A stretch of 62,391 bases of DNA from an uncultured virus (IMG/VR IMGVR_UViG_2061766007_001805) (lineage: Duplodnaviria; Heunggongvirae; Uroviricota; Caudoviricetes). The position numbers were made by a program, and so were the translations under genes. Every line of letters begins with the position of its first letter. Position 1 is the first letter of the stretch. Below, piece after piece: positions 4,058-61,585 of this stretch. Under the pieces are notes generated by a model. It worked only from the letters and a program-made list of their open reading frames with translations, was not told the origin of the DNA and did no database searches. The DNA lies in IMG/VR virus record IMGVR_UViG_2061766007_001805. The stretch is one strand, 5' to 3'.

Positions 4058-4828
4058 TTAGTCCGGAAAACATTGATAAAGCTTTAACTGTAACTGTGTG
4101 TCATTATTCAGTTCATTGAATATCATAACTTTTGTTTTTTCAGGAAAGAAAAGAGAAATTATACTAACTACTATATTGTCCGGTACTATTGCATTTTTGT
4201 CTATCTTATATGAAGTGTATCTGTATGGATTATCTATATCCACATCTGAATGTTCTTCTGTTAATATATTGTTGATGTTATTAATCATTATATCGGTTAT
4301 ATAACTATTCTCATCTTTCCATAGATGTCTCATGATATTGCCTACAAATCTACATGCTGTTATATATGAATGTAGTTTGGGTAAATTAAAGAACAGCACC
4401 ATGTCGACTCTGCCGAATTCTCCACACGGAGATTGGATAAACTATTCTAATGAATTAGACCACCGTGTGATGAGTTTGTATTCATAGAAATCAATGAAAT
4501 TACATTCATTGTATTTGTCTTTAAGTAGCCACCATGCTGATTTTTCTACTACTGTTGGTTGTGAATACTCTATTCCGTACACATCAAACATATAAAGAAT
4601 GTTCTTGAATGTGTGTGGAATTTTAACAGTCCATATTTTACTCTATGTTAAACTATTATTACTGTCTACCTCAAAAATTATACAGTGTGTGTATCTGGAT
4701 GCCATTGCATCATAGTATTCAGCTGGTGTATCATAATATATGTCATCAGTGTTGAAATCACCAACTGAATTTCTCACATCCTCATCTGTCAGATCCAAGT
4801 CTTTGAAGTAGTCTTCTTTTAGTAGCAT
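4058..4828 (-). CDS. MILNE-family paralog, 256 aa (code 15)
   Basis: MLLKEDYF leader; frame open apart from 2 TAG; core YGIEYS..P / FFNLP / FFPEK / CFPD. Confidence 0.85.
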
Positions 4829-5119
4829 TAATATATAGAGATAATGTAGTTTCCTTATTTATTCTTGAGATGAGTCTGGACTATCAACCATATATTTAAA
4901 TACTGCGTTACAGGTTAAAAAACAGCAGTTTATTGCGGATATTTTGTTGGATTATATAAGATCTTTTATAGTTACTGTACCGGCAGTCCAACAGTCCAAC
5001 AACATCTCTTGGGTTTCATTTGATTAAGTTGTTCTGCAGCAAAACAACAGGTTAATTTGGAAATTCAACATCATAAAGAAAGAGAGCAACTATCGGGATA
5101 GATAATTGCTCTTGTACTA

Positions 5120-5887
5120 TTAATCATAGTCCGGAAAGCATTGATAAAGCTTTAACTGTAACTGTGTATCATTATTAAGTTCATTGAATATCATGTCATA
5201 TGTTTTTTCAGGAAAGAAAAGAGCAAGTAGTTCAAGTACTGTCTTGTCCGGTTCTATTGTTGTCTTGTTTATTCTATAAAACGAAGAAGGATTTGTCTAC
5301 GGATTATATAAATTAATTTCAACATATTGTCCTTTTAAATGTTTGATGACATCGAATATACTAAACCGATCTATAAATTTATTCTTCCATAAACACTTCA
5401 TAATATTACCGACGAACTTACATGCTGCTGTATATGACTATGTTTTTGGTAAATTAAAGAATATGATCATGTTGAGTAAGTTGCGTTTTTGGCACGGAGA
5501 TTTGGTAAACTCTTCTAATGAATCATACCGTGTGATGAGTTTGTATCCATAAAAATCAATGAATTTACAGTAGTTGAACTCATTTCTGAGACGGATTGTT
5601 GCTATGGGTTCTACTAATGTGAGTCGTGAATATTCTATTCCATATACATCAAACAACTAAGAAAGCTTCTTGTACATATGCGAGATTTCAACAGTCTTAT
5701 TGATAGTATGCATCGGAAAATCAGATATAGGTGTTGTAAAGATCAGACAGTGTGTAAATTTGGAGGTCATAGCATTATAGTAGTCAGCCGGTGTAGCATA
5801 ATCAATGTCATCAGCATCTGAATCTGAAGATGCTATATTGTCATCTGTTATTTCCAAGTCTTTGAAGTAGTCTTCTTTTAGTAGCAT
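5120..5887 (-). CDS. MILNE-family paralog, 255 aa (code 15)
   Basis: Fragments in one frame joined across TAGs; ends CFPDYD-TAA. Confidence 0.85.
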
Positions 5888-6177
5888 TGATATGAAGATA
5901 ATGTGATTTCCTTATTTATTCTTGAGGATGTGTTGAGGACTATCAACCACATATTTAAATACTGTGTTACAGGTTAAAAAACAGCAGTTTATTGCGGATA
6001 TTTTGTAGGATCATATTAGATCTTTGATAGTTGCTGTCCTGGTAGTTCAACAGTCCGGCATCATCTTTTGAATATACTTAATTAAATTGTTCTGCAGCAA
6101 AACAATTAGTTAGTCTGGAAATCCAACATCATAAAGAAAGAGAGCAACTATCAGGAGAGATAATTGCTCTTGTGCTA

Positions 6178-6951
6178 TTAATCAGGGAAGCATTTGTACA
6201 GTCTGGACAGCAGTTCACGATCACTGCTGAGTTCATCATATATTGTATCTTCATCCTTCTCCGGAAAGAACATACGGATGATTCCTGTTACTATATCATC
6301 AGGATGTACCAGGTCTTTATATACTGTATGTTTCACACCCCGGTAAGCATACGGATTGTACAAATGTAAGCCTTCATAGATTCTTCCCATAAGTGACCGA
6401 TCCTGTATGATTAACTTCTTCAAGTAACTATTATGGTTTCTGTTCTTCCACAGTTGTTTTACAATGTTGCCGATAAACCTGCATGCTGCTAAATATGTAT
6501 GGATTTTCGGTAGATTGAAGAACATCAGCATATTGATAGCACCGATTTTAATGTATGGGTTGTTGTCCTTGAGAGTAGTTAGTCCATTATACTTTGTAAT
6601 GAGTTTATATCCGTAGAAATCTATGAACTTGTACCGCTCATATCCTTCTGAGTGATGGATTTCCTGTACCATAGCAGTTGAATACCGGACTTCATACACA
6701 TCCAGTATATATTGTATATTCTTGAGCAAACGCGGAACATCATGATTCCATATCTTATCCTGTGTTAGAATGTCAGCATACTCAATATCGAAAGACATAC
6801 AGTGGGTGTATTCGGACTTCATGGAGTTAAACCACTCTTTCGGATTAGCATATGTCTTATCTGTGTCGGATATGTTGAAATCATCAATTGGATATTTCAG
6901 GTCATCATCAGTAATCTCTATGTCATCGAAGTAATTCTCTTTCAGTATCAT
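6178..6951 (-). CDS. MILNE-family paralog, 257 aa
   Basis: Intact ORF with family motifs and no internal TAG. Confidence 0.9.
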   Translation of the reverse strand: MILKENYFDDIEITDDDLKYPIDDFNISDTDKTYANPKEWFNSMKSEYTHCMSFDIEYADILTQDKIWNHDVPRLLKNIQYILDVYEVRYSTAMVQEIHHSEGYERYKFIDFYGYKLITKYNGLTTLKDNNPYIKIGAINMLMFFNLPKIHTYLAACRFIGNIVKQLWKNRNHNSYLKKLIIQDRSLMGRIYEGLHLYNPYAYRGVKHTVYKDLVHPDDIVTGIIRMFFPEKDEDTIYDELSSDRELLSRLYKCFPD

Positions 6952-7158: not shown

Positions 7159-7905
7159 ATGATACTGAACGAAGATTACTTCAATGACTTAGAGATAGAA
7201 GACAAAGATGTCATAGAAGATGTTGATGAACTCGACTATGAACTGACATTAGATGATGTTCAGAAGTTACCTGAACAATATAGTCATTTAATAAGATTTG
7301 AGATTGAGAATGCTGATGATAATAGGAATACAACATTTATTCAAACATCACTAATACCAAAATTATTCAAGAGACTTGATACCATATTCGAACTCTATGG
7401 TATTGAGCATTATGAATATGTACTTGCGTCAAGGCATGATGTGAAAATTTGTGAAACTGTAGTCAAATTCGGAGACTATCAGTTATTCTGCGAAGAAGAC
7501 AAGAAAGATAAATTTATAAACAACACATATGATTGTTTTTTCATCAATGTGTTTGTCAATTATCCTGAGTTTACTTATAAGAAAGCATTCCGTTTTCTAT
7601 ACACTATGCTTAATTTATATAAGAATAGTAAACTAATTAACCGGATGAGTTTTAATCTAAACACAACTAATGATTATTTTATAGAATTAGAATTTAGGAC
7701 TGAAAACAATCATATAAAATTTTATTAGTATAATACATATACATGTGGATATGACGCTATAATGTATTTATGTAATGAACTAACAGAAGAAAATAAGAGA
7801 GTATTCTACTTCTCTGTTTTCTATCATTTCTTCGGAGAAGGAGTAAGCGCACCATATAAGTTAATTGACAGGGATGTATCACTCAAACCCATTAGACCAA
7901 GATAA
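7159..7905 (+). CDS. MILNE-family paralog, subfamily B (LFKRLD..F/DRDVP), 248 aa (code 15)
   Basis: TAG at 7726 read through to the DRDVSLKPIRPR-TAA end shared with paralogs. Confidence 0.85.
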
Positions 7906-7998: not shown

Positions 7999-8769
7999 AT
8001 GCTAATTAATGAAGATTATTTCAATGACTTAGAGATAGAAGACAAAGATGTCATAGAAGATGTTGATGAACTCGACCATGAACTGACAGTAGAAGAACTC
8101 CATAAGTTGCCTGAGCAATATAATCATAGCATAGCGATTGAAATAAAAAACCTTGATAAATGTAGAAGATGTACAACATTTTTCCAAACAACACTAATAC
8201 CGAAACTATTCAAGAGACTTGATGACATATTCGATATGTATGGTATTGAACATTCAGAGTATGTACTTACATCAGTTATGCAGAAATACTGTAACACTGT
8301 AGTCAAATTCGGAGATTATCAGTTATTTTGTGAAGAACATCTTAAAGACGAATTCATAAACGACACATATGAGTAGTTCTTCATTCAAGCGTTTGTCAAA
8401 TATCCGCAGTTTACTTATAAGAGAGCATTCCGTTTTATATACACATTAATTCCTAATCTATACAGAATGGACAGACATATCGGTTTTATGGGTTTTTATC
8501 CATCCGCTAATGATTATGCTACTACAACATTATATTTCTATTTTCAAAGGACACCAAATGATATAAGATTTGAATACTATGATGAAATAATTAAAAAAAT
8601 GGGACGTGGAATGTTTTTATGTGATGAAGATTATTTCACAAGTGAATATCTAAAGAAAGATTTCTACTATGCTGTTTTCCGTCATTTCTTCGGAGAGAAA
8701 GAAGTAAATAAGATAGATTATGAAGCAATTGATAGGGATGTACCACTCAAACCTATTAATCCAAGATAA
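7999..8769 (+). CDS. MILNE-family paralog, subfamily B, 256 aa (code 15)
   Basis: 7999-8376 and 8467-8769 in frame across a TAG. Confidence 0.85.
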
Positions 8770-8940: not shown

Positions 8941-9717
8941 TTAATCATAGTCCGGAAAGCATTGATAAAGTTTTAACAGTAACTATGTGTCATTATCAAG
9001 TTCATTGTATATCATACCATAAGATTTTTCAGGGAAAAAAAGAGAAATTGCACTAACTACTATACCATTGGGTACGATTGTACTTTTATCCATCTTATAT
9101 AAAGATGTCTTTGGATTACCTATGTCCACAACAGGATAATCTTCTGTTGATATATTGTTATTGTTATCAATCATTATATTGGATATATAACCTTTATGAT
9201 TCCCATCTTTCCACAGATGTCTCATGATATTACCGATGAACTTACATGCTGTTATGTATGAAGTTGCTTTTGGTAAATTAAAGAACATTACCATATCGAC
9301 ACTGCCAAGTTTTCCGCCCGGTGTTTGGATAAACTCTTCTAATGAATTACACCGTGTGATTAGTTTGTATCCATAGAAATCAATGAAGTTACAGTTGTTG
9401 AATTTGTCTTGAAATATCCAATATGCTGAACTTTCTACTACTGTTGGTTGTGAATACTCTATTCCGTATGCATCAAACATATAAAGAATGATCTTGAATG
9501 TGTGTGGAATTTTAACAGTCCAGTCATCACTCTATGTTAAACTATTATTACTGTCTACACTAAAAATTATACTGTGTGTAAATTTGGATGTCATAGCATT
9601 ATAATACTCAGCTGGTGTATCATAGTATATCTCATCAGAGTTGAAATCATCGACTGAAGATGCTATATCATCATCTGTTATTTCAATATCATCAAAGTAG
9701 TTTTCGTTCAGTATCAT
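8941..9717 (-). CDS. MILNE-family paralog, 258 aa (code 15)
   Basis: In-frame fragments joined across TAGs; close relative of 4058-4828. Confidence 0.85.
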
Positions 9718-9791
9718 CATCAGTGTATAATGTGGTTTCCTTATTTATTCTAACTTGCAATAGTAGGTAAAGTCCAATATCAGATTCTACC

Positions 9792-10571
9792 TTAATAGGC
9801 AACATAGTCATACAGTTTAGAGAGTAATTCTTCATTTTCCCGGAGTTCTTGTCTTATTTCCTCTGGAAATTTTTCCGGGAAGAAAGTGTTAATCAAATCA
9901 GTTAGTTTGTAATCCGGCGATGATGTTCTACGGATTGGCAATATATCTCTATACATTTGCACGCCGCATTGTTTCCGTTGCACGCCGCAATGTTCCTGTC
10001 TGCCATTAACCCATTCAAGTCTCCATATATAGAATTCGTTAATGTCCGCTTTATATTTTTTGTTTCCCCAGGGCCAGAGATATTTCTTAATACTGCCAGT
10101 AAATTTACATACGGTTTTATATGTATAGGTTTCCGGTAAATTGAAGAACATCACAAAATAAGCACCGATGTTTAAATTAATTGTCGTTTTTTCTAAAGAA
10201 TCGTGTAATGTGACTAACTTATAACTATAAAAATCAATAAAGTCATATGATTCATAGTTTGTTATAAAGCACTATTTAGGTTCTTCGTCTATTGTTTGAA
10301 TTATGGGTTTTGTGTATTCTGCTCCGTATAGATCGAATATGTCATAGATATGCTTGAATGTATTCGGTATTTCATGTTCCCATGTCTTAGACTCTGAAGA
10401 TATATCTCTCTTCTTAATGAAGAAGATCATGCTGTATGTGTATCTGGATTTTATATCCTAAAACCATTTCTCAGGATTATCACAGTTGTCATTAATAATG
10501 TGTTCGTCTGTGTCCGAAAAATCGTTATCAGTGAGTTCAAGGTCATTGAAATAATCTTCATTCAGTATCAT
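9792..10571 (-). CDS. MILNE-family paralog, ~259 aa (code 15)
   Basis: MILNEDYF start in frame with ORF 9792-10154; internal TAGs. Confidence 0.8.
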
Positions 10572-10777
10572 CATCAGTGTATAATGTGGTTTCCTTATTT
10601 ATTCTTGGGAGAATACTCAGTGATGTCTGGACTGTCAATTCACCCTAACTGCGTTACAGGTTAAAAACAGCAGTTTATTGCGGATATTTTGTATGATCAT
10701 ATAAGATCTTTGATAGTTGCTGAACCGGCAGTCCAACATCATCTCCTGATAAATACATAAACTAATTATCCGTACTG

Positions 10778-11527
10778 ATGATACTGAACGAAGATTACTT
10801 TGATGACTTGGAGATAAAGGATGAGGATATCATAGATGATGTTGAAGAACCAAAGCATGATCTGACAGTAGAAGAACTTCATAAGTTGCCTGAGCAATAT
10901 AATAATTTAATAAGATTTCGGATAGAAGTTGATGATAATGATAAGGATACAACATTTATTCAAACATCACTAATACCAAGATTATTCAAGAGACTTGATA
11001 CCATATTCGAACTCTATGGTATTGAACATTATGAATATATACTTGCGTCAAGGTATTATGTGTGTTATTGTGAAACTGTAGTCAAATTCGGAAACCATCA
11101 GTTATTCTGTGAAGAATACGAGAAATATAAATTTATAAATGGTAAATATGAATATTTCTTCATCCATGTGTATGTCAATTATCCTGAGTTTACTTATAAG
11201 AGAGCATTCCGTTTTCTATACACAGTGCTTAATCTATATAGAGATTGTAAACAAACTAATTAGATGATTTTTGAACCACTCACTGATGATTATGTTATAG
11301 AATTAGAATTTGGGACTGAATACAATCTTATAGAATTTTATTACTATAATAGAAAAATAGATGCAAGAGGAAATGTCATAAATTTAGGTAATGAACTAAC
11401 AGAAGAAGATAAGAGAGAATTCTACTACTCTGTTTTCTATCATTTCTCCAAACAAGGAGTAAGCGCGCCATTTAAGTTAATTGACAAGGATGTTCCGTTC
11501 AAACCTATTAGACCACTTGAATTCTAA
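10778..11527 (+). CDS. MILNE-family paralog, subfamily B, 249 aa (code 15)
   Basis: Two abutting in-frame ORFs separated by a single TAG. Confidence 0.85.
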
Positions 11528-11624: not shown

Positions 11625-12449
11625 ATGATNNNNNNNNNNNNNNNNNNNNNNNNNNNNNNNNNNNNNNNNNNNNNNNNNNNNNNNNNCTTGGAGATAACAG
11701 ATGATGATATTATAGTAGATAATCCGCTTGAGCAACCATATGATATAAATGCCGTTGATAAACATCTCACATCTTATTATGAACGCTGTCTATTATTAGC
11801 ATTGATATATGAAAAAGATATATATGCTTTAGATTCACATCCGCATATTATCAATTTGCTCAATAAAGTAAAACATTTCCTTGATGTTTACAACATAGAA
11901 TATGAATATGTATTCCGAGACAAATCAAAGGGAATTGGAAATCTGTACTTATATGATGTCGGCGACTTCAGTGTGATTTCATCATACTATCCAGAATCAT
12001 CGTTAAACTACAAAAGCAACAGATACTACAATGGTGTGACTATTGTCATATATATGAGGAAGATACCAAAGTTCACATATAAGGAATCATATCACTTCAT
12101 TCATAGATTATATAATACATTATGGAGATAGTATATGAATTATGATTCCATGAGAATCACAAAATATAAGAACTTATACACTTGGAATGAAATATGTGAT
12201 TTCATGAGAATCACAAATAAGCCGATTTCACTATATGGGGATATTCTGAATGATTCGTGGAAAGATACGTCAATAACATTAAGAGACCTTACAAATCGAC
12301 GAATAATATATAACTTGCCTTATAGGGATTATTTCAAAAAAGCATTACTGTGTTTCCATAACACAGACGAAGACATAATGATAATTGATGACATGTGTAG
12401 TAAACTCAAAAATGGTATTGACCCGTTCAAAAGCAGTAATGTGCATTGA
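11625..12449 (+). CDS. MILNE-family paralog, subfamily C (PY..FFKKA..DPF), spans an N gap
   Basis: In-frame fragments across a TAG; 5' part hidden by Ns. Confidence 0.75.
11630..11686. other. Assembly gap (N run)
   Basis: Run of n characters. Confidence 0.99.
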
Positions 12450-12509
12450 TAATAGCAGCACTCTAACATCATTGTCTGCAATAAATACATAAACTGAATT
12501 TCCATAATA

Positions 12510-13292
12510 ATGATACTGAACGAGGATTACTTCAAGGAACTTGACCTGACCGACGATGATGTGCATGTAAATGACACCCTTGGTGACGGATGTCCGGATT
12601 AGACAGATAATGTCAGGTCACTCTTCGAACATATGTTCTCCAGGTACTCGCACTGCATTGTCATTACCACCAATGAACTTGTCTATCCGTTTACTGACAC
12701 GAAACTGTGGATGACTATGATGCCGGCTCTGTTCAAGAGACTGAACTGTGTGTTGGAACTGTACGGAATACAGTATTCAGAGCCTGTCTTCATGTATGAG
12801 CATGACTGGAATGACCGTCTCTCGAACTATGACGACTGTGACAAATACAATATATACAATTATTACGGATACAAGATAATCAGCGAATATGATTCCGAAT
12901 ATGACTTTGAAGAGAGTATCCAGTATGATGAAGACGAACTGAAGATAATCATGTTCTTCGATATGCCTGAGTTCACATCACTCAGGAAAGCATACAGATT
13001 CATCTGCAATATAATCAGGAACGTATGGAAGTCCAAATACGAACAGGACATATATTGGTCAATATTTATATATAAGTCATAGGAAAAGAAATTCTATAAG
13101 AATGATATATACGATTGCATAACCGTATTCAGAAGGGAGATTAACGATATCATAGATATCAATAACTTGAAGCGCATACCTTTGTTGAACATACTCAAGT
13201 ATATGGCACCGACAGTCGGGCGCATAGTGTTTGACATGCCGTTTGACGAGTTGACTGATATTCTAAAGGGAAATAAAAAACAGCATCAGTAA
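12510..13292 (+). CDS. MILNE-family paralog, 260 aa (code 15)
   Basis: MILNEDYFKEL start; 2 TAG; TAA at 13290. Confidence 0.85.
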
Positions 13293-25385: not shown

Positions 25386-25491
25386 AATGCCCATAGGTAA
25401 GTGGGATAAAGACTGTGGAGGGCAAGGTCACAAGACTCCCTATGAAGCAGTAAGATGTACAAGGCTTTGTGCCAACATGTATATCGTTACC
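25386..25491 (+). ncRNA. Putative omegaRNA/reRNA scaffold region 3' of tnpB
   Basis: GC-richer hairpin-forming segment after the stop codon, conserved in the MITE at 57503-57597; position matches known TnpB reRNAs. Confidence 0.5.
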
Positions 25492-43031: not shown

Positions 43032-43200
43032 AATTATGGAATGCATAGTTTAAGTATTTATTTCCTGAGAGGCAATGATGTTGGACTGCCACTATCATCA
43101 GCGGTTATATTGTTCTGCAACGAAACGATAGGTTATCTTCGGTTTCTTGAAGAATATGATGTTGATGATTTATTTTTGAGATTAGTTCAAGTTCACAATA

Positions 43201-50234: not shown

Positions 50235-50452
50235 TCAGTTAAATAAACTTAAATAATTGTGTGAATTATTGTATTGTGGTTTATTATTCATACCTTTGTA
50301 TCAGCAAAAGCAACGAACCTCAGTCTATACACATCGGCTGATTAAGTCTAAGATACTGGAACTGATGCAGTTAAGTGTGGAATAAAGAAACTGGTTGGTG
50401 AAAGTTGCTGAATTGAATGTACTGTTATTCAATTATATAGTGATATATTGGA
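50235..50452 (+). promoter_or_regulatory. CRISPR leader with Bacteroidetes promoter (TACCTTTG at 50291); homologous leaders at ~52778-52998, 54681-54893 and 56303-56520
   Basis: Four alignable copies, each directly 5' of an array. Confidence 0.8.
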
Positions 50453-51966
50453 GTCTATACAGTGTCATTATTTCTACTTTATGTAGATTCTTCGAGTACT
50501 TCGAACAACAAACGGAGTCTATACAGTGTCATTATTTCTACTTTATGTAGATATGATTGTATTTTGTTTAAGTTGTTTCAAGTCTATACAGTGTCATTAT
50601 TTCTACTTAAATGCCTACTTCCGTAGGTTGTAGATTCTGCAAGAAGCCTCTTTACACGATTCGTCTATACAGTGTCATTATTTCTACTTTATGTAGATCC
50701 GCAAACAACACATCTGTACAGACCGAGTATATACAGTGTCATTATTTCTACTTCATGTAGATCAATAAGATCTTCCATAGAGACTGTGGAAGTATATACA
50801 GTGTCATTATTTCTACTTTATGTAGATGAAAACCAAACTTAAAAAATAGAGTATAAAGTATATACAGTGTCATTATTTCTACTTTATGTAGATGAATATC
50901 TCTATGAGAGCCGGTCTATACAGTATCATTATTTCTACTTCATGTAGATCTGTGATATTCGCCTTGTATGGTGAATGTAGTTTATACAGTATAATTATTT
51001 CTACTCAAATGCCTACTTCAGTAGGTTGTAGATGTGGCATTGGTTGCCGTTTTCTGTATGTGTCTATACAGTATCATTATTTCTACTTCATGTAGATATG
51101 AGCAATGACATCACTGTACCAATTAAGTCTATACAGTGTCATTATTTCTACTTCATGTAGATGCAAGTGATATGGTTATCTTGATTTGTGAGTCTATACA
51201 GTGTTATTATTTCTACTTAAATGCCTACTTCCGTAGGTTGTAGATGCAATGTAAAGATTGTATCAGACTCTAACGTCTATACAGTATCATTATTTCTACT
51301 TCATGTAGATATATTGACTTCTCGCAAAACAAATTATGTCTATACAGTGTCATTATTTCTACTTAATGCTCACTTCCGTGGGTGTGTAGATCAGTACGGT
51401 CATGACTTGACAGAAGAAGGTATCCTACAATATCATTATTTCTACTTCATGTAGATTATAATATTATATAGCGTCTATACAGTGTCATTATTTCTACTTA
51501 ATGTAGATAAAAAATGCTAGTATAATTTTCAGAAGAGTCTATACAATATCATTATTTCTACTTAATGCCTATTTCCGTAGGTTGTAGATGTCGTCATTAT
51601 ATCACTCACTCTGGTCTTCAGATCTATATAATATCATTATTTCTACTTCATGTAGATCATTGTCCTTTGATTCCAGCAAGATGACCGAATTCTTTAAGAA
51701 TATATACAACAGTATAATTATTTCTACTTAATGCCTATTTCCGTAGGTATGTAGATGTGGGCACTTATCCTGAGAAAGTAGCGGTGTCTATACAGTGCCA
51801 TTATTTCTACTTCATGTAGATTTCTGCTTTCTTTCCGTTGAATATCCTTTGTATATACAGTATCATTCATTTCTACTTAAATGCCTACTTCTGTAGGTAT
51901 GTAGATATGTAATATTCGCCGCCTTTGTGTGAGAACTCAAGACAATATCATTCGTTTCCACTTAAT
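50453..51966 (+). CRISPR. CRISPR array 1, Cas12a-type repeat GTCTATACAGTGTCATTATTTCTACTTTATGTAGAT; 22 repeats / 21 spacers; 7 long-loop repeat variants
   Basis: 36-nt repeats with mostly 27-30 nt unique spacers; 3' ATTTCTAC-loop-GTAGAT matches the type V-A crRNA handle. Confidence 0.93.
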
Positions 51967-52591
51967 GCTGGCACTACCATAAGTCACGTACTAATGCTTC
52001 CTTCCGTAGATAAGGATACTTAAGGAAATCGGTTACATCTGCTATATAGAACCCCCAGTTCGTAAGGTTATAATGTTTTTTTATCAATTCGAGATTAGAA
52101 ATATTCAAGTCGGTGTTCCTGTTAATCTTAGCTATCTGTTGGGCGATGTTGCTGATGAATCTACAAGCAAAACTATATGAATGGGCTGTCGGGAGATTGA
52201 GAAATATCACCATTCTCAGATTGTTACTGATTTCATTCAAATCCCTATACTTCGTTATCAACTTATAACCATACAGGTCAAATAAATTACAAGATTTGTA
52301 TCTTTCTTTAATACATATATACGAATGTGTCTGCAGAGTAGGCTATGAGTATTCTATTCCGTATACATTGAATATGTATTGAAGTCTCTTGACGATATGT
52401 GATATTCTATCTACCGAGTGCTTGTCTTTTATTTTAACATCAAAACCCAAACAATGACTGTACTTTGACTGCATGTCTATGTACCATTCTTCCGGACTGT
52501 TATACTCATTACCGACAATGTCGTCATCATGAGTTATAATGTCGTCATCGGTCAGTTTCAAATCATCAAAGTAGTCTTCGTTCAATCTCAT
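51962..52591 (-). CDS. MILNE-family paralog, 209 aa (code 15); stop codon lies inside the last CRISPR repeat
   Basis: TAGs at 52343 and 51974; TAA at 51962-51964. Confidence 0.8.
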
Positions 52592-52998: not shown

Positions 52999-53767
52999 GT
53001 CTATACAGTGTCATTCATTTCTACTAATGTAGATCGGGATTGTCGCCCCATACACGTGATGTAGTCTATACAGTGTCATTCATTTCTACTAATGTAGATA
53101 TTGATGAAATAATAATACAGATTCATGTCTATACAGTGTCATTCATTTCTACTAATGTAGATTGAGAATTCTTAATGAGTTTGCCCTCAAGTCTATACAG
53201 TGTCATTCATTTCTACTAATGTAGATGGTTTGTTAATTATGTCTATACAGTGTCATTATTTCTACTTTATGTAGATACAACGGAATAATCCTTAATGTGA
53301 ATTGTTAAGACAGTGTTATTATTTCTACTTAATACCTACTTCCGTAGGTTGTAGATACCTATTCATCTCCATGTACGTTATTTAGTCAAGACAGTATAAT
53401 TATTTCTACTAATGTAGATGAATTGAATAGTCTATTGATACGTCTATGCAGTATAATTATTTCTACTTAATGCCTACTTCCGTAGGTATGTAGATACAAC
53501 GGAATAATCCATAATGTGAATTGTTAAGACAGTGTTATTATTTCTACTTAATACTTACTTATGTATGTTGTAGATAAGCATCACCTTGAAATCGTGTCTA
53601 TACAGTATCATTATTTCTACTTCATGTAGATGCGGTTATGATAGTCAAATGATGACATTGTCTATACAGTATCATTATTTCTACTTAATGCCTACATCCG
53701 TAGGTTGTAGATTGGTACCACAAAACGCTCATGACACATGTATATACAGTATCATTATTTCCACTTA
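52999..53767 (+). CRISPR. CRISPR array 2, 12 repeats / 11 spacers
   Basis: Repeat GTCTATACAGTGTCATTCATTTCTACTAATGTAGAT and variants, 4 of them long-loop. Confidence 0.92.
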
Positions 53768-54517
53768 TTGCTCAATTCCATAAGTAGTTCTCTGATTCTT
53801 TGCAAATAGACATCCGAGTACACAATCTCTATCGTGCTCATTCAACACTTGCTTGTAGAAACTGTTATAGTCATTGAATGATTTAGCATCACTGCCGTAC
53901 ACATTTATCTCTTCTTCATATGTACTGTAATAATAACCGCCGTCTATGGAAAAGAGGTTTACAAGGAAATCATCACGTTTGAAGATAGTCTTTGTTAGAT
54001 AGTAAAGAAATTTCATTCCCTGCTGTATTGTATTGAAATCAGGCATATTGAAATGCATATAAAGTACATACCAGCGTGATTCATATTCCCCATTAGTTCT
54101 CTTGATTTGAGTATCTTTACATGCAAGGTGTATGTATCCGTAGTCATATATGTTGTAATTCGGTATGGAATGACCATCTATTTCAACCGTGTTGTCATAA
54201 TCTTCTTCATACGTGTCTATCAAGAATAGTTCGGAGTGTTCTATTCCGTATGTGTCGAACAGATTGTATAGCATAGTCTATATCTTCTTTACAGTGACCG
54301 GATTTATATCATGGCTTAACGCTTCACGATTTGAAATTTTGAAATCAATACACAATCTGTCAGTGTAATGTTTCTCACAGTACAGAATATATTCATATCC
54401 GGACTGGAAGTTTTTATGTGATTTAATAAACATATCTTCACCAACAGTGCTGTCTGAAGACGTAATGTCGTCATCAGTCAATTTCAAATCATTAAAGTAG
54501 TCTTCTTTTAATATCAT
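53765..54517 (-). CDS. MILNE-family paralog, 250 aa (code 15); stop codon inside the last repeat
   Basis: One TAG at 54278. Confidence 0.85.
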
Positions 54518-54893
54518 CTGTATATAGATAAAGTGGTTTCATTATTTATTCTCTCTGTATGATGTCCGGTAATTTTCCGTAACTACGCTTCAGGTTAAAA
54601 AACAGCAGTTTATTGTGGAAACATAAAAGAAGCCAGTCCGGTAATTTGGCTACATATATTCTGTAATGAAACAATTGGCTTGTCAGTTAAATAAACTTAA
54701 AATATTATCCAATAATATTATATTGTGATTTTATATTTGTACCTTTGTAACAGCAATAGCAACAAACATCAGTCTATATACATCGGCTGATTAAGCCTAA
54801 GATACTGGGACTGACACAGTTAAGTGTAGAATAATGGAACTGGTGAATAAAAGTTGCTGAATCGAATGTGCTGTTATTCAGTTACTTAGCAGT

Positions 54894-55230
54894 ATTCTGA
54901 CAGTATCATTATTTCTACTTAAATGCCTACTTCCGTAGGTATGTAGATTAAATCTCTGTCTTTTTGCAGAATCTTCTGTCAAGACAGTATCATAATTTCT
55001 ACTTAAATGCTTACATTCGTAGGTCGTAGATACTTACTCGTCGCCATGCACGTCATTTAGTCAAGACAGTATAATTATTTCTACTTAATGTAGATCTTTG
55101 GGCGAACTCATCAAGAAAGCCTTTGTCAAGACCGTATCATTATTTCTACTTAATGTAGATAACAACGTTTAATAAAAACTTCAGTCAAGACAGTATCATT
55201 ATTTCTACTTAATGCCTACTTCCGTAGGTC
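54894..55230 (+). CRISPR. CRISPR mini-array 3, 5 repeats / 4 spacers
   Basis: GTCAAGACAGTATCATTATTTCTACTTAATGTAGAT variants, 3 of them long-loop. Confidence 0.88.
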
Positions 55231-55274
55231 GGAAAACAGTTCTTCAGTTTCATATGATGTTGTCCATGAGTTCA

Positions 55275-55997
55275 TCAATTATCTGATGTGAATTGATCGG
55301 AGATGAACATATTAAGTCTTCTTAGTATGGTTTCATCCGGTGCGATTGAAGTATAGTTCATATATTCTTTTTGGTTTATATGAAAACCGTACTGCGACTC
55401 TGGTTGAAAAATGTTATTAACAACCATCTTATTCGGATCCTGTATATAAAGTGTGTACATATTGAAAATTTTTCTATATGATTCGTTGTTCCATAAACAT
55501 TTCATAATGGCATTGATGAACTTGCATGCTTCTGAATACTTATGTACTTTGGGCAAGTCTAAGAACATCATAACACACATCTCCCATTGTGTGATGCAGT
55601 TGCGTTTGTATTCTTCCATACTATTGTATGGCGTAACGAACTTGTAACCGCGGAAGTCGATAAAGTTACAATGGGCATAATCTTCATCCCTTCTCAAATA
55701 ATAATGCCGTAGTACTGGTTCAGAGTAATCTATTCCGTATACATCGAATATATAGTGAAGCTTCTTGAGAATAGACGGTATCACATTATCCCATATGTAA
55801 TATTGTTTTTCCGATAAGATTTTGTTGCCGTCTTTCTCTAACCTGATAAGCAGACAGTGGCTGTACTTGGATTTCATATCCCTGTACCATTTTTCCGGAT
55901 TCCTGTATTCGACAGCAACAGGCAGGTTGTCTGATGAAGACTCTATGTCATCGTCAGTGATTTTATTGTCATCAAAGAAATCTTCGTTCAATCTCAT
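55275..55997 (-). CDS. MILNE-family paralog, 240 aa
   Basis: Intact ORF; the family C-terminal remnant (KLKNCFP) continues past TGA into the last repeat. Confidence 0.85.
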   Translation of the reverse strand: MRLNEDFFDDNKITDDDIESSSDNLPVAVEYRNPEKWYRDMKSKYSHCLLIRLEKDGNKILSEKQYYIWDNVIPSILKKLHYIFDVYGIDYSEPVLRHYYLRRDEDYAHCNFIDFRGYKFVTPYNSMEEYKRNCITQWEMCVMMFLDLPKVHKYSEACKFINAIMKCLWNNESYRKIFNMYTLYIQDPNKMVVNNIFQPESQYGFHINQKEYMNYTSIAPDETILRRLNMFISDQFTSDN

Positions 55998-56072
55998 CTG
56001 TATATGGATAAAGTAGTTTCATTATTTATTCTTCAGTAAGATGATGTCAGGTACTTCAACTGCATCTCCCTA

Positions 56073-56182
56073 TACCATATTTCCGGATTAGTGCATTCGA
56101 CAGCAGTAGTCTGGTTGTCTGATGAAGACTCAATGCTATCGTCAGTGATTTTATTATCAAATAGGTATTCGTTCAATAACAT
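56073..56182 (-). pseudogene. Degraded 5' fragment of a family gene (copy of the start of 55275-55997)
   Basis: MLLNEYLFDNKITDD-like start with the conserved upstream motif, then breaks off. Confidence 0.7.
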
Positions 56183-56520
56183 CTGTATATGAATAAAATA
56201 TTTTCATTATTTATTTTTCGGTAATATGATATCAGGTACTTCAACCGTATCTCTTGATAGTGAATCGGTGATATTGTTCTGTAATAAAACAATTGGCTTT
56301 AAGAGTTAAATAAACTTAAATACTTGTGTGATGTTATTGCATTGTGGTTTTATATTTGTACTTTTGTATCAGCAAAAGCATCAAGCCTTAGCATCTACAC
56401 AATTGCTTGAGTATGTTTAATATATTAAGACTGAAAGAGTTAATTGGAAATGTGGAAAACTGGTGAGTAAAAGTTGCTGAATAGAGTGTACTGTTATTCA
56501 GTTACTTAGCAGTATTCTGA

Positions 56521-56848
56521 GTCAATATAGTATAATTATTTCTACTTTATGTAAATCGAGAATCCGTTCCAACCACTACGGCGAGTCAAAATAGTATAAT
56601 TATTTCTACTTAATACCTACCTCCATAAGTGTAGGTCGTAGATAGGTCCTCAATGCACTTGTGGTCAGTAATGTCTATACAGTGTTATTATTTCTACTTC
56701 ATGTAGATTATCGATGATAATCATCTTCTATAAGTCTATACAGTATAATTATTTCTACTTAATGCCTACATCCGTAGGTTAGGTATGTAGATGAAAGGTG
56801 ATTGGTGAAGCATATGTACTGTCTATACAATATCATTATTCTTACTTA
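56521..56848 (+). CRISPR. CRISPR mini-array 4, 5 repeats / 4 spacers
   Basis: Same handle; 2 long-loop variants. Confidence 0.85.
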
Positions 56849-57451
56849 AAAGTCTTCTTCAGTAAGATCCACTCTCATTGAATATACTCCGACTGTTTGA
56901 ATTTCCTGAGTTGCATATGACTCAAACTGGTAAACTGGTTCAGTTTCGGAATCAGCACCCATAATGTATGTCACAAGACCTTCAGTGAAATAACTGTCAT
57001 CCGACTTGCTATCACGTAATGCGGATAGTGCGAGAGATGCACTGTGTGGCGGGAAATCTCCAGGGAATACACATCCGAAGAACGGACTATCCGTAACATC
57101 AACTGTTATATCACTGAGACTTGAGTCAGAGAACCAGACGAACAGTGTAGGTGCATTCATATATCCTTCACCGTCATGCTGAAGGATTGTGTACACACCG
57201 TGACACTCTTTTCCGTGTTCTTTGTCTATCAGGACAGATACAGTGCCGTCTTCTTCAGAGTCCTGCTTTACGTACCAGCCTTGAAACTCATACAGCAATA
57301 CAAGTTGTCCCGGATAATTGTCATTTGCCCAGCGACGTACCATGACATTCATTTTGTAAAGCAGGTCATTGAAATCAGCAGTGACCGGTGTGTCATAGTG
57401 CAGTTCAGGTTCATTGTCTGTGCCTAATACAAGATGATTGTTAGCTTCCAT
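56846..57451 (-). CDS. Hypothetical acidic protein, 201 aa (MEANNH...), unrelated to the family; stop codon inside the last repeat of array 4
   Basis: ATG at 57451 after an A-rich leader; the extra 48 aa in the ORF track come from the MITE and UTR. Confidence 0.75.
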   Translation of the reverse strand: MEANNHLVLGTDNEPELHYDTPVTADFNDLLYKMNVMVRRWANDNYPGQLVLLYEFQGWYVKQDSEEDGTVSVLIDKEHGKECHGVYTILQHDGEGYMNAPTLFVWFSDSSLSDITVDVTDSPFFGCVFPGDFPPHSASLALSALRDSKSDDSYFTEGLVTYIMGADSETEPVYQFESYATQEIQTVGVYSMRVDLTEEDF

Positions 57452-57502
57452 TGTGTATAGTATTTTATTTTTGATGTGAATTGATGTAATTGTAAAAAGT
57501 AT

Positions 57503-57715
57503 GGTAATGATATACATGTTGGCACAAAGCCTTGTATATCTTACTGCTTCATATGGTTGCCCTCCACAGTCTTTATCCCACTTACCTATGGGCATTTGAT
57601 ATATGTTTATTTATGAGCGAAGTTACAAAAAAATTCTGAAACCAACAAACATTTTCATAATAAATTATTAATCTAATTATTATGACTAAATTGTGCCAAC
57701 ATATATATTGTTACC
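57503..57715 (-). mobile_element. 213-bp MITE of the TIR-TnpB element (promoter plus putative omegaRNA region, tnpB deleted)
   Basis: TIRs GGTAATGATATACATGTTGGCACA / TGTGCCAACATATATATTGTTACC; 8-bp duplication AAAAGTAT at 57495-57502 and 57716-57723; interior matches 24218-24250 and 25385-25491. Confidence 0.88.
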
Positions 57716-57793: not shown

Positions 57794-58561
57794 TTATGAA
57801 GAGAAGCATCTGAATACTATACTGAACAACTCCTATTTGTCAAATACTTCCTGATGTATTGTTTCCAAATCTTTTTCAGGAAAGAACATATTAATCATAA
57901 AAATCACATTCCTATCATCATTAATCACATTCCTATCATCATTGAGATTCCTATGTTTCATATAATAATTATATTCCGAAGAGCTGAATCCATGCATTAA
58001 TGCTTGATAATTATTATCAATGCTCCGAATTTCGAAGTTAGGCACAACTGCTCTGTAATCATCATTAGCTAATATCGTTTTCATTATACTGCCTATAAAC
58101 TGGCATGCTTCCTTATACGAGCGGACTTTTGGTAAATTAAAAAAAATCACTATATATAAATAGTAGCACGGCTGGTCGGGACTGCGCTTAAATTCTTCCA
58201 ATGACTTTCTGAAGGAAATCAATTTATAATCATGTAAATCAATGAAATTGCATGCTCTGTAATTATCACCACAATACATGATGGTATAGTCTTGTATTGT
58301 TGGTTGAGAATACTCTATATCATATACATCCAATACATATTGAAGATTCTTGATCAGATGCGGAACTTTAGTTTTCCAAATATAATCCTTGTGTATGATA
58401 TCACTCTCTTCTATCCTGATGCGGAGAAAGTGACCATACTTGCTCTTCATGTCAGCGAACCATTCTTTCGGATTTGCATATTCGGCAGTGTCACTGTCCG
58501 GAGAAGTGATATCATCATCAGTAATCTCTATCTTATCAAAGTAGTCTTCGTTTAATAGCAT
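57794..58561 (-). CDS. MILNE-family paralog, 255 aa (code 15)
   Basis: TAG at 57833 read through to VFRCF..TAA, as in its neighbour. Confidence 0.85.
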
Positions 58562-58758: not shown

Positions 58759-59499
58759 TTACTTTCTGAAGCATCTGAATACCACATCGGTCAAGTTCTC
58801 TTTGCTGTCAAGTAATTCCTGACGTATTGTTTCCGAATATTTTTCAGGATAAAATATATTGATTAAATTGATTACTTCATTAGGGATATTTTGATAGTTT
58901 ATAAAATTCTGTTCCAAAGTGTTGAAGCCATGTATTATCATTTTAGGAGTATCGTCAATACTATGAATGCAGAAAGCAGGCACGAATACTTTGTAATCAT
59001 CATTAGCCAATATCGGTTTTATTATATTGCCTGTGAACTGACATATTTCCTTATATGAGCGGACTTTCGGTAAATTGAAAAACACCACTATATATAAATA
59101 GAAGCGATGTTTGAATTCTTCCAATGACTTTCTGTACGTAATCAATTTATAGTCATAAAAATCAATGAAATTGCATGGTCTGTAATTATCGTCACAATAT
59201 GTACAGTCTTGTATTGTGGGTTGAGAATAGTCTATATCATATACATCCAATACATATTTAAGATTCTTGAGCAGATGTGGGGCTTTGGATTTCCAAATAT
59301 AATCATTATGTATGATATCGATATCACTCCCTTCTATCCTGATGCGGAGAAAGTGTCCGTACCTGCTCTTTATATCGTTGAACCATTCTTCCGTACTTGC
59401 ATATTCGACAGTATCAGTGTATGAAGAATCAATGTCCGGAGAAGTGATATCATCATCAGTAATCTCTATCTTGTCAAAGTAATCTTCGTTTAATAGCAT
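58759..59499 (-). CDS. MILNE-family paralog, 246 aa
   Basis: Intact ORF. Confidence 0.9.
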   Translation of the reverse strand: MLLNEDYFDKIEITDDDITSPDIDSSYTDTVEYASTEEWFNDIKSRYGHFLRIRIEGSDIDIIHNDYIWKSKAPHLLKNLKYVLDVYDIDYSQPTIQDCTYCDDNYRPCNFIDFYDYKLITYRKSLEEFKHRFYLYIVVFFNLPKVRSYKEICQFTGNIIKPILANDDYKVFVPAFCIHSIDDTPKMIIHGFNTLEQNFINYQNIPNEVINLINIFYPEKYSETIRQELLDSKENLTDVVFRCFRK

Positions 59500-59727
59500 T
59501 TGTATATGAATAAAGTATTTTCCTTATTTATTATTGAAAATGTCATATGGTAGTCTAACTGTGTTATCTTGAGTATTATCATATAGTTGTTTTGTTACAG
59601 AACAACCGGTAATATACTCAGCAGATGATGAAGCGTCGGTCTGCTTATGATGTTTGGACTGCCGGACATCATATTACTGGAAAAATGAGTAAAATGCCTA
59701 TTTCCATAAGTCAAGTACTTCCGTAGG

Positions 59728-60465
59728 TCAAGCACCATATATGCTCTATATTACCTGATTGAATTTTTTTGACAATGCTTCTCTTATCGCAAATGGATTA
59801 TGATTCGTAAAAAACATATGAATTAATTCAACCAATTCATTGATTGACATTGTAAGTTGGGGATGCTGATATGTATTGTAAATAATTGCAGAATCAAGGT
59901 ATTTGTCATATTTTTCTGTAAAAAGACATACGTTCAAGTCATTGTAATATTCTCCAAAGAACTCATTCTTCCATAGTTGCTTAGTGATATTGTGGATGAA
60001 CAGGCATGCTGCATTATATGTTTTCAACTTTGGCAAATTAACGAAGTACACTATCTTTATATAAGTGGTTGCAAGATTATACTTACTGAGTTCCGGTATT
60101 GTTTTATACTCTGTAATCACTTTATATTGGTGGAAATCGATGAAATTACAAGATTTGTATTTGTCAAGTATATACCAGGCCGGAGCGTCTTGAATAGTCG
60201 GTTCTGAATAATCCATTCCGTATGTGTCTAAAATGTATTGGAATCTCTTGATAAGCTGCTATATTTGTTGGCTCCATAATCTGTCATCAGTTAGGATTGG
60301 GATGTCTTTCTTCTTTATGTTTATCGACAGGAAACAGTTGTACTTAGTCTATATATTTTTGAACCAGTCTTCCGGACTTGCATACTCGGCAGTATCACTG
60401 TCCGAAGAAGTGATGTCATCATCAGTAATCTCTATCTTGTCAAAGTAGTCTTCGTTTAATAGCAT
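59728..60465 (-). CDS. MILNE-family paralog, 245 aa (code 15)
   Basis: MLLNEDYF start in frame; 3 TAG. Confidence 0.8.
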
Positions 60466-60688
60466 TTGTTGTGTGGCAATACAGTTTCATTATTTATTCT
60501 CTGAGTAGATGCCCGATAATCTTCCATAACTGCATGACAGGTTAAAAAACAGCCGTTTATCACGGATATTCTGATGATCATAAAAAGACCACAACTGGCG
60601 TGCGGAGAGCCGGTATCATCTCCTGTCAGACTATGCTTGTAGTATCTTTAGTGTCATCTAAAAGAAGCAATGTCAATGTCAATCAAGT

Positions 60689-61585
60689 TCAGGTTTTGGG
60701 GAATGGTTTTTCATTCAATGATATGCTAAACACCCTACACTGAGTTATGTATTCCTTAGCATCATCATTGTTCCATGTAATATGATGCTTTTTTAGCTAT
60801 TCTGCCGGATAAATGCATTCGAACAGTGCAGGCAGTATGGTAAAGACATGTGTGTTTAGTTTTTCGAAGAATTCTTTTCTCACCATTGTTTTTTCCGGAA
60901 AGAATAACTGGACTATCTTGAGTATCATCTTGATTCTCTCTCTGGTCACAAGCAAATCGGTTCTTTTCAGAGAATCAGGGTTCGGCAGGAACACTCCCCA
61001 GTATTTCTGGTTTGATGACTTTATCTGTTTGAGATTCCATATATGGAAGCAGTAGTCTTCAGAGTTGCTGTTGTTGTTCCATATGGTTTTAACGATTCTG
61101 CCTACAAACTTGCATTCCGATACATATGAGCGAATATCCGGCAAGTTCAGGAATATGATGATGTCGATTTCATAGTACAGTCCGCGCTTACATTCTTCCA
61201 TAGAATCATACTATGTAATCAGCTTGTATCCGTGGTAGTCGAAGAATTTGCACGATCTGAACTTAAACAGCAAGTTATCTTGGGTTTCGTCGATACTGCA
61301 CATCAGCACCGGCTCCGAGTATTCCATCCCGTATGTGTCGAACATATACTGGAGTTTCTTAATCATCTGCGGTATGCCGTGGATGCCCGGTGGTTCATTA
61401 AAGTCCTGAGTTTTGAAAAAATGCTCGATACATATGCAGGTACTATACTTGGACTGCATATCCGCATACATCTGCTCCGGACTGGAATATTCATTGTCAG
61501 ATAAAGCTGTATAGATATTATCGGATGTCTGAATGTCATCATCAGTCAGTTTCAAATCATCAAAGTAGTCTTCTTTTAATAACAT
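60689..61585 (-). CDS. MILNE-family paralog, ~298 aa (code 15)
   Basis: TAGs at 61211 and 60797; TGA at 60689. Confidence 0.8.

Follow-up and report, generated by a model that had tools for sequence, protein, structure and literature searches.

What would a phage do with some fifty versions of one protein, set side by side over most of 60 kb? The question is raised by a 62,391-nucleotide (nt) stretch of DNA from an uncultured virus of the Caudoviricetes (IMG/VR record IMGVR_UViG_2061766007_001805; the window hereafter), for which a first-pass annotation, made from the letters alone, had listed 47 near-full-length genes and three remnants of a family without recognizable domain. A profile built from 46 full-length open reading frames (ORFs) and run over all six frames of the window returned exactly this count: 50 elements of one protein family between positions 4058 and 61591, namely 46 full-length copies, one divergent copy and three remnants. 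Profile E-values of the 46 copies are circular, as the profile was made from these same copies; independent support comes from their alignment, whose consensus contains the acidic leader MILNEDYFDDLEITDDDI and the motifs Y.HC, FD.YGIEYSEP, F.DF.GYKLI, FFNLP and FFPEK, in line with the shared leader and core motifs described initially. Full-length copies measure 209–300 amino acids (aa; median 250), with 39 genes on the minus and seven on the plus strand. Single linkage at 50% identity divides the 45 alignable copies into 23 clusters, of which the three large ones have 9, 7 and 6 members; at least three subfamilies had been proposed. Two details of the earlier description needed correction. Its end point, 61585, is the second methionine of the last gene, whose ORF starts at 61591, and the family spans ~58 kb without filling it completely: family coding sequence makes up 34,572 of the 57,534 bp (60%) across 4058–61591, the remainder consisting of promoter cassettes, four CRISPR arrays, small-RNA-like cassettes and five other genes.

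The copies are visible only with an altered genetic code. Translation table 11 leaves most ORFs of the window broken; under table 15, in which TAG is a sense codon, they become a dense row of ~250-aa ORFs, as had been noticed at first reading. In-frame TAG codons (64 in 11,478 family codons) are spread over 37 of the 46 genes and never serve as stop, the copies ending in TAA (32) or TGA (14). Alignment columns that hold a TAG are twofold enriched in glutamine (5.8% versus 2.8%), the other residues being the one-step TAG neighbours glutamate, lysine and tyrosine. TAG as glutamine is thus the best-supported reading, by which the family genes would be translated with genetic code 15. Because of this recoding, together with an HNH/NUMOD-like ORF, a methylase and the lack of cellular genes, we read the element as a phage.

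A locus of this kind might be non-functional, that is, a product of selfish cassette amplification, a pseudogene graveyard or an assembly artefact. The three remnants fit such an origin, as does the breaking of unitigs at the cassettes, and yet this explanation is largely refuted and scarcely credible to us. All 46 ORFs of 209–300 codons are open with no TAG as stop. Pairwise identity between copies ranges from 16 to 78% (median 31%), and since no pair exceeds 78% they are not collapsed or duplicated assembly copies. Selection, suspected earlier from the open frames, is borne out by a pooled ratio of nonsynonymous to synonymous substitution (dN/dS) of 0.47 over 34 pairs at ≥60% identity, with a whole-gene value below 1 in 34 of 34 pairs. 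Public sequencing runs containing the stretch or part of it number 20, come from 12 studies and are labelled bovine gut, none of them being listed as an RNA run; two, from a single bovine-gut sample that may be the source, contain 0.92–0.94 of the words of the stretch and the others 0.10–0.27. Logan contigs from four of these 20 runs were aligned on 20 kb of the window. The contigs listed for run X1 match gene bodies with 0 differences at a depth of 18–28, and those of three other studies (X4, X5 and X10) cover single paralogs at ~88–99% identity, two of them differing at 10 positions in 648 nt and at 9 in 738 nt. As contigs of other studies carry close orthologs of single copies, it is confirmed that the array is not an assembly artefact, one of the outcomes that could have undone the first-pass annotation. 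Unitigs end at the conserved cassettes, with alternative joins there, and for this reason the copy set is supported, the gene order not independently confirmed. A run of 57 Ns (11630–11686) hides the leader-coding part of one copy (11625–12449). Copies that lie next to each other share more identity than do random pairs (0.413 versus 0.314; 0 of 5000 permutations), a signature that points to tandem duplication. The array would have grown as entire promoter-gene cassettes were duplicated in tandem and then diverged over a long time.

The family extends well beyond this one array. A word-indexed search of 5.8 billion proteins yielded 16 matches; an exhaustive search of 1.84 billion representatives with a profile, the building of which had been proposed at the outset, yielded 211 proteins at E ≤ 1e-3, 142 at 1e-10 and 42 at 1e-30. 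Many of these relatives are short, as expected if gene callers stop at TAG. Among 169 stored relatives, 48 are at least 70% identical to a window copy and together match 34 of the 46 copies; 94 are less than 50% identical to any. With ≥70% counterparts for 34 copies, individual paralogs are thus kept as orthologs in related phages, and the array represents a small part of a far larger pan-family. Searches with the family profile and the promoter-cassette pattern gave no match in IMG/VR or JGI metagenome contigs, and tblastn of one family copy gave none among GenBank phages.

Selection acts unevenly along the protein. The leader (residues 1–18) has a dN/dS of 0.15, with 0 of 29 pairs above 1, at the highest proportion of synonymous differences of all segments (pS 0.45), from which we conclude that it is conserved at the protein level and not by gene conversion. 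Values are 0.59 for the linker (residues 19–36), 0.38 for the core (37–170), 0.85 for an indel-rich variable segment (171–220; 14 of 33 pairs above 1) and 0.61 for the C-terminal helices (221–257). The leader is thus the segment under strongest constraint, and the variable segment evolves near neutrality or above. Leader positions have an entropy of 0.6–1.4 bits, compared with 1.3–3.2 elsewhere, and a net charge of −4 to −7. Even the remotest database relatives with diverged bodies retain the leader as F-x-D-[IL]-T-[DE]-[DE]-D-[IV]. The isoelectric point of the bodies ranges from 4.6 to 9.2. The near-invariant positions (M1, F8, Y, K, N, P) are occupied by aromatic or structural residues, and as no catalytic-looking set is conserved, these are more likely to be non-enzymatic binding proteins than enzymes. 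The earlier idea of a diversified effector arsenal is thereby partly supported: a constrained scaffold with a fast-evolving segment fits diversification, the effector role itself being putative.

One might also take these proteins for internal structural filler, inner-capsid or inner-body proteins that help to pack or eject a very large genome, without specific targets and left to diverge under weak constraint. Giant phages do contain internal and ejection proteins in large amounts (PMC7411985), and a dN/dS of 0.47 is high for a phage gene. We nevertheless consider filler quite improbable, as single copies are kept as 85–97% orthologs across samples while paralogs share ~31%, the scaffold is well constrained with divergence concentrated in one segment, and the proteins are not basic.

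Structure prediction outlines a protein of three parts. Two AlphaFold2 models agree although their subfamilies are ~20% identical (predicted local distance difference test, pLDDT, 86.7 and 86.4; predicted template modelling score, pTM, 0.85 for both). They display a disordered N-terminal stretch of ~30 residues, a helix, a beta-alpha-beta-beta-alpha-beta core, a beta segment and two to three C-terminal helices, the leader being disordered in both (pLDDT 49–68). Each protein would accordingly start with an invariant acidic 18-residue peptide, joined by a flexible linker to a conserved ferredoxin-like scaffold, after which come a beta segment that evolves fast and the C-terminal helices. The best matches of a wide VIA search, to S6-like chains, reach Z 6.2 (root-mean-square deviation 4.7, 95 aligned) and Z 5.8 (5.9, 101 aligned) and fall below 7–8, the tool's typical chance-level best match; the predicted core bears only a generic ferredoxin-like resemblance (S6, ACT, palm-like). 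Foldseek against PDB and BFVD, a comparison already suggested, gave no match at E ≤ 1e-3 for the models searched. A phage SAM lyase (E 1e-2, VIA Z 4.6) heads its weak matches to model 2 and is not credited. Sequence libraries likewise name no well-characterised family, in line with the initial statement that no known domain could be recognised: Pfam and PHROGs gave no family match on eight representatives, Pfam at E ≤ 1 no consistent family on all 45 members (the most recurrent name in 4 of 45, at E 0.02 or worse), PADLOC and NCBIfam no family-level match, curated anti-defence and anti-CRISPR families included, PDB sequences no profile match at E ≤ 10, and the ESM Atlas no usable match for a typical copy or the leaderless copy. 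That leaderless relative (41360–42112) is aligned to the family by hhalign (93%, E 3e-7), its residue 5 falling on profile column 31.

When would such proteins be made? A cassette, ATAAATAATGAAAC.GATTTATCCATATACAG-ATG, matches 26 times with at most three mismatches, compared with 0 in 100 shuffles, and precedes 24 full-length copies and two remnants. Other subfamilies have different 5′ leaders and retain the ATAAATA box, which lies 26–34 nt before the ATG in 44 of 46 copies, at exactly −32 in 26; of all 68 ATAAATA sites of the window, 44 are upstream of family copies. Every family gene therefore appears to be its own transcription unit behind a phage-specific, non-host promoter. Another promoter type marks other units. 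TAnnTTTG, the Bacteroides −7 promoter consensus (PMC4747536), in most cases with TTTG upstream of it, stands before the four CRISPR leaders, the TnpB and NERD genes, the leaderless relative and several small cassettes. From this promoter type we infer a rumen Bacteroidota host. The TTTG/TAnnTTTG composite occurs 10 times in the window, with 4.3 ± 2.0 expected; eight of the 10 precede non-family units and none a family start. In the 19 kb from 26 to 45 kb, sigma-70-type promoters are not enriched (109 versus 106.8 expected), nor are canonical terminator hairpins (7 versus 5.4 expected).

Codon usage divides the units along the same line. Five non-family genes contain 0 TAG in 1,702 codons, where 9.5 are expected at the family rate (P 7.6e-5), and the leaderless relative combines a host-type promoter with 0 TAG. 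Units with a host-type promoter and no TAG should be expressible by unmodified host machinery, and would thus be early; family genes, which need a phage-directed promoter and TAG suppression, would be expressed in the middle or late phase, and their synthesis right at the onset of infection is improbable. In a survey of jumbo phages, recoded stops were concentrated in regions of viral hallmark (structural) genes (PMC13037316). Group 2 jumbo phages, including a Prevotella megaphage, encode no polymerase of their own and do encode sigma factors and a T4 gp33 ortholog (PMC7824862).

The reading that we favour, at a rough probability of 0.35, is a repertoire of middle or late binding proteins that share an N-terminal address tag, which would direct them to one destination, probably the virion. 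About 47 working genes of a new binding-protein family would be carried by a TAG-recoded phage of a rumen Bacteroidota host, and phage-directed ATAAATA promoters together with TAG suppression would set their synthesis in the middle or late phase. The shared leader would be an address tag docking all paralogs to one common partner, most likely loading them into the virion, and the next infection would open with a pre-made, varied set of proteins that inhibit or bind targets in host defence or takeover. We arrive at an address tag joined to a recognition module from a conserved, disordered, tethered peptide on late-class proteins whose bodies vary most in one segment. Moreover, if the family acts early its members must arrive pre-made, which would suit the leader as such a tag.

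Phage T4 offers the closest precedent. Its internal proteins are diverse counter-defence factors from a polymorphic locus, delivered with the DNA (PMC3012670, PMC7411985), and its capsid targeting sequence consists of 10–20 N-terminal residues, which bind to the prohead core and are removed by gp21 (PMC7411985). IPI, IPII, IPIII and Alt thus likewise have a short conserved N-terminal peptide on diverse small proteins, and here, too, the leader is the most conserved part. T4 has a few unrelated folds, in contrast to the ~50 mutually homologous copies of one fold in this array, and its internal proteins are related to this family neither in sequence nor in fold. The architecture of tag, cassette and varied body has a T4 precedent; the protein family is new and the scale unusual.

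Several points weigh against the favoured reading. The T4 late promoter box, at about −10 of late transcripts, is TATAAATA, and it is by this likeness, hence by analogy, that ATAAATA would mark late genes here; the methylase gene also has TATAAATA ~40 nt upstream. The TAG-free neighbours TnpB, methylase and NERD are typical mobile genes and may have arrived recently, so that their absence of TAG may reflect origin instead of timing. Within the window, a tRNA search found no tRNA and hence no suppressor tRNA(CUA), and Pfam and PHROGs found no structural gene or protease. Leader words occur on no protein of 407–2000 aa, which is weak evidence, and all eight near-length leader matches are family members (profile E ≤ 2e-51); unlike the T4 tag, the leader was thus found on this fold only. 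It is also strongly acidic. The motif [LI]-x-E is a T4 prohead protease-type site. It lies within the first nine residues of 43 of 45 leaders, at residues 3–5, and a cut at this sole site of its type would remove only five residues. Finally, the bodies are not basic, unlike the DNA-contacting internal proteins of T4 (PMC3012670).

Some of these points would suit middle or late effectors that are not packaged and act in the cell that makes them, for example by countering abortive-infection systems that act late, by superinfection exclusion or by fighting competing phages, with the leader docking to a common phage or host hub (a protease adaptor, polymerase or chaperone) or setting turnover. The same selection pattern and the promoter and codon class fit this alternative. 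The leader is bound to one fold and is no portable tag, acidic-to-neutral bodies are unexpected next to packaged DNA, and the region has the character of a conflict island with its CRISPR arrays, NERD nuclease, methylase and TnpB. Defence inhibitors, however, are usually needed early, and 37 of 46 copies need TAG suppression. We know of no precedent for ~47 late cytoplasmic proteins with one shared terminal peptide and regard such intracellular action as only slightly less probable than loading into the virion. Clearly less probable are exchangeable modules of the virion surface, in which the leader would mount varied bodies on capsid or tail for binding of host surface variants or rumen substrates. 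A conserved N-terminal peptide, a varied body and a repeated promoter module would be expected of such modules, as would the late-class features and a beta segment as the fastest-evolving part; the bodies, however, are small and of one globular ferredoxin-like fold, with no lectin, immunoglobulin or propeller fold as in adhesins, and 47 kinds per particle would leave a very low copy number for each.

The four CRISPR arrays within the gene array comprise 39 repeats, compared with 0.04 expected. The repeats are ~36 nt long and end in TCTACT-loop-GTAGAT, a Cas12a-type handle that folds with a 5-bp stem; the published LbCas12a scaffold reportedly has the same stem. Spacers are mostly 26–29 nt long and unique except for one near-duplicate pair, and each array follows a ~330-nt conserved leader with a Bacteroides-type TAnnTTTG box. 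In window ORFs of at least 150 aa, Pfam and PHROGs identified no cas12a, adaptation or other Cas domain, only a TnpB. Spacers have no match longer than 16 nt in the rest of the window and chance-level rows only (E 0.1) in GenBank phages; three of the 39 searched in IMG/VR gave 0 matches, and neither the full repeat nor its 3′ handle has a match in GTDB representative genome contigs. Interspersed among normal repeats, ~15 of the 39 have a long form with an extra 6-bp hairpin (CCTAC-TTCC-GTAGG) in the handle loop, which folds as a nested stem (−9.7 kcal/mol) and may be processed by Cas12a or serve as a decoy.

Three super-units of ~2–2.5 kb (50100–52570, 52573–54498 and 54499–56200) each consist of a family gene (−), a promoter, a conserved ~400-nt spacer/leader and a CRISPR array (+). 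The families D5, D9 and D10 of these units are 69–90% identical, and family gene and array were duplicated as one. These super-units, and the presence of four Cas12a-type arrays inside the gene array, would be accounted for if the proteins modulated Cas12a, as anti-CRISPRs or accessory factors working with the embedded arrays. Four of the 46 copies adjoin an array, however, arrays and family genes differ in promoter class, and no solved protein, anti-CRISPRs included, gives a significant fold or sequence match, which makes this link very improbable.

A broader and, in our estimate, improbable extension of the virion-loaded repertoire joins both components in a two-layer conflict armoury of a megaphage, with early CRISPR arrays and small RNAs under host promoters and a late library of tagged binders, loaded into the virion and injected together. 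In the first layer, Cas12a-type arrays and small RNAs would use host machinery against competitors. The second, ~50 binders on one scaffold, would be a germline-encoded recognition repertoire differing mainly in one hypervariable segment, and each infection would open with a broad-spectrum set of inhibitors, fitted to the many variants of defence in rumen Bacteroidota. The pan-repertoire of related phages would comprise hundreds of specificities (211 clusters at 50% identity).

The small RNAs of this proposal are suggested by mini-cassettes in tandem at 16201–16700, with others at 41073–41250 and ~61845–61990 (+). Each has a host-type TTTG..TAnnTTTG promoter, a variable 45–55-nt segment and the same strong terminator hairpin (TAGCAC..GGTGCTA with a T run; folding z ~−3.2), which gives them the look of a small family of short RNAs whose bodies vary. 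Rfam has no family at gathering score in the window, the one row obtained being at chance level (E 0.81). A 17-nt junction element, GGACTGYCAGACATCAT, occurs at 27 sites (at most four substitutions; 0.7 in shuffles), 25 of them on the plus strand irrespective of the orientation of neighbouring genes; it is possibly a recombination or regulatory site.

Among the neighbouring genes (Table 1), the NERD gene has a fused Top1-type C4 zinc ribbon and an N-terminal hydrophobic stretch, and weakly resembles the N-terminal NERD-like parts of two defence kinases, PglW and MAD6 (E 3e-5 to 3e-9, well short of their cut-offs). The best GenBank phage matches of the methylase are unclassified gut "Bacteriophage sp." records at 42–50% identity. 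The TnpB gene adjoins a family copy cut to its first ~70 residues (25490–25717), as if insertion had destroyed that copy. The 1106-aa ORF has a G+C content of 42%, compared with ~33%, a long low-complexity N-terminus in which CFAAKHQ and NDVG.PTSS units are repeated, and two HNH/NUMOD-like stretches; a search of GenBank phages gave no match to its protein. Within the array, short frames between genes (for example 19361–19522 and 26845–27012) spell ...SGSPNKTTCFAAEQ... strings like this ORF, and one DNA element may recur in both. Near-palindromic ATATTTGAATAT clusters with a period of 18–20 (3766–3869, 13786–13874 and 22851–22904) lie beside the 1106-aa ORF, the gene for the NERD protein and the promoter of the methylase, and are perhaps operator-like sites. 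At least six copies of TTAGGA(T/C)T.TT at 10-nt spacing lie upstream of the 1106-aa ORF (244–330).

Table 1. Features of the window, in order of position. TAG, number of in-frame TAG codons; E, profile E-value (circular for the 46 full-length copies).
Positions	Strand	Feature	Length (aa)	TAG	Support
447..3767	+	Flanking ORF, low-complexity N-terminus, HNH/NUMOD-like stretches	1106	9	
4058..4828	-	Family copy	256	2	ORF call, E 1e-86
5120..5887	-	Family copy	255	3	ORF call, E 3e-86
6178..6951	-	Family copy, folded as model 1	257	0	E 9e-86
7159..7905	+	Family copy, subfamily B	248	1	E 4e-59
7999..8769	+	Family copy, subfamily B	256	1	E 1e-57
8941..9720	-	Family copy	259	2	E 3e-88
9792..10574	-	Family copy	260	2	E 7e-75
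10778..11527	+	Family copy, subfamily B	249	1	E 1e-55
11625..12449	+	Family copy, leader masked by Ns	274	1	E 2e-36
12510..13292	+	Family copy	260	2	E 2e-63
14007..14903	-	NERD nuclease domain and Top1-type zinc ribbon, host-type promoter		0	Library match
15158..15919	-	Family copy, shortened leader (MEDYF...)	253	0	E 2e-81
16142-16158, 20981-20997, 26990-27006, 49262-49278		Junction element GGACTGYCAGACATCAT, examples			
17562..18323	-	Family copy	253	0	E 1e-84
18651..19421	+	Family copy	256	2	E 3e-54
20025..20768	-	Family copy	247	1	E 5e-85
21168..22772	-	C-5 cytosine DNA methyltransferase		0	Library match
23119..23883	-	Family copy	254	1	E 2e-82
24270..25385	+	TnpB/OrfB_IS605-type, host-type promoter		0	PHROG transposase, E 2e-121
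25490..25717	-	Remnant: leader and first ~68 profile positions, adjoins TnpB gene			E 7e-21
25700-25734		Promoter cassette of remnant 25490..25717, 2 mismatches			Pattern match
26088..26780	-	Family copy	230	2	E 1e-64
27178..27933	-	Family copy	251	2	E 5e-65
27931..27965	-	Example promoter/5′-leader cassette ATAAATAATGAAAC.GATTTATCCATATACAG-ATG			
28131..28850	-	Family copy, subfamily A	239	3	E 8e-82
29038..29769	-	Family copy, subfamily A	243	3	E 4e-84
29876..30202	-	Remnant, deleted internally (profile positions 1-43 fused with 233-254)			E 7e-15
30279..30977	-	Family copy, subfamily A	232	0	E 3e-82
31176..31904	-	Family copy, subfamily A	242	1	E 4e-81
32146..32853	-	Family copy, subfamily A	235	2	E 7e-81
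33064..33768	-	Family copy, subfamily A	234	1	E 2e-82
33933..34652	-	Family copy, subfamily A	239	1	E 4e-83
34827..35537	-	Family copy, subfamily A	236	1	E 1e-85
35668..36453	-	Family copy	261	2	E 9e-66
36584..37381	-	Family copy	265	2	E 1e-62
37560..38276	-	Family copy, subfamily A	238	1	E 2e-79
38378..39121	-	Family copy, subfamily B	247	2	E 6e-56
39222..39989	-	Family copy, subfamily B	255	1	E 7e-61
40227..40961	-	Family copy, subfamily B	244	1	E 5e-57
41360..42112	+	Divergent leaderless relative, host-type TTTG/TAnnTTTG promoter	250	0	E 6e-10
42267..43046	-	Family copy	259	2	E 4e-49
43201..43956	-	Family copy	251	3	E 1e-55
44060..44827	-	Family copy, subfamily B, structure model 2	255	0	E 1e-60
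45534..46313	-	Family copy	259	0	E 3e-79
46458..47180	-	Family copy	240	2	E 2e-77
47392..48129	-	Family copy	245	2	E 2e-74
48401..49162	+	Family copy	253	2	E 4e-76
49387..50118	-	Family copy, divergent orientation from CRISPR array 1	243	0	E 4e-73
50452..51906	+	CRISPR array 1, 21 Cas12a-type repeats, spacers mostly 26-29 nt			
50582-50635, 50979-51033, 51191-51245, 53441-53495, 54893-54948, 56584-56643		Long-form repeats, examples			
51962..52591	-	Family copy, short C-terminus, divergent orientation from CRISPR array 2	209	2	Profile 1-195, E 5e-65
52999..53712	+	CRISPR array 2, 11 repeats			
53765..54517	-	Family copy, divergent orientation from CRISPR array 3	250	1	E 3e-43
54893..55160	+	CRISPR array 3, 4 repeats			
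55275..55997	-	Family copy	240	0	E 8e-76
56036..56203	-	Remnant: leader and ~45 profile positions			E 1e-8
56180-56214		Promoter cassette of remnant 56036..56203			Pattern match
56584..56792	+	CRISPR array 4, 3 repeats			
56846..57595	-	Context ORF, no family match	249	0	
57794..58561	-	Family copy	255	1	E 4e-87
58759..59499	-	Family copy	246	0	E 1e-78
59728..60465	-	Family copy	245	3	E 7e-76
60689..61591	-	Family copy, C-terminal extension	300	2	E 6e-79

An expansion of this size had been called very unusual for a phage, and the literature agrees: the ~35-copy Zn-ribbon expansion of Bacillus phage G was termed "unprecedented" among 224 jumbo phages (PMC7824862), compared with 50 elements here. 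Both are very large lineage-specific expansions in giant phages. Phage G multiplied a small Zn-ribbon of known fold, whereas the present copies are ~250-aa unannotated proteins, more numerous and each with a promoter cassette. PeSL cassettes (promoter early stem-loop) of T4-type hyperplastic regions flank variable small genes and have been proposed as drivers of modular shuffling (PMC2839356, PMC4122927). They place early promoters and stem-loops between unrelated ORFs; in this array a non-host promoter stands before paralogs, and the promoter cassette is conserved while terminator hairpins are not enriched (7 versus 5.4). Outside phages, the multigene families (MGF) of African swine fever virus (ASFV) and the ankyrin/BTB proteins of poxviruses comprise dozens of diverged tandem paralogs at variable regions, thought to counter host defences. 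Those viruses infect eukaryotes, and their families have known repeat folds and no shared terminal tag. The literature records and passages obtained on phage paralogs, recoding, the rumen, Cas12a/phage arrays and megaphages contain no description of this family, and the matched passages of the Lak megaphage paper mention no such array.

If the favoured reading is true, the locus would surpass every set of paralogs reported to date from a phage and would add a new fold family outside the annotation libraries. TAG-free units under host promoters and TAG-containing units under phage promoters lie within the same 60 kb, a natural test of whether recoding separates early from late expression. Cas12a-type arrays with no cas gene nearby, including the form with the extra hairpin, bear on how phages may exploit or jam host CRISPR. 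The way in which T4 addresses a handful of injected proteins against host defence by a single tag would be extended to a 50-member library. The array would then be a natural panel of binders or inhibitors for finding new defence systems of rumen and gut Bacteroidota, and its leader could serve as a cargo-loading tool for such phages.

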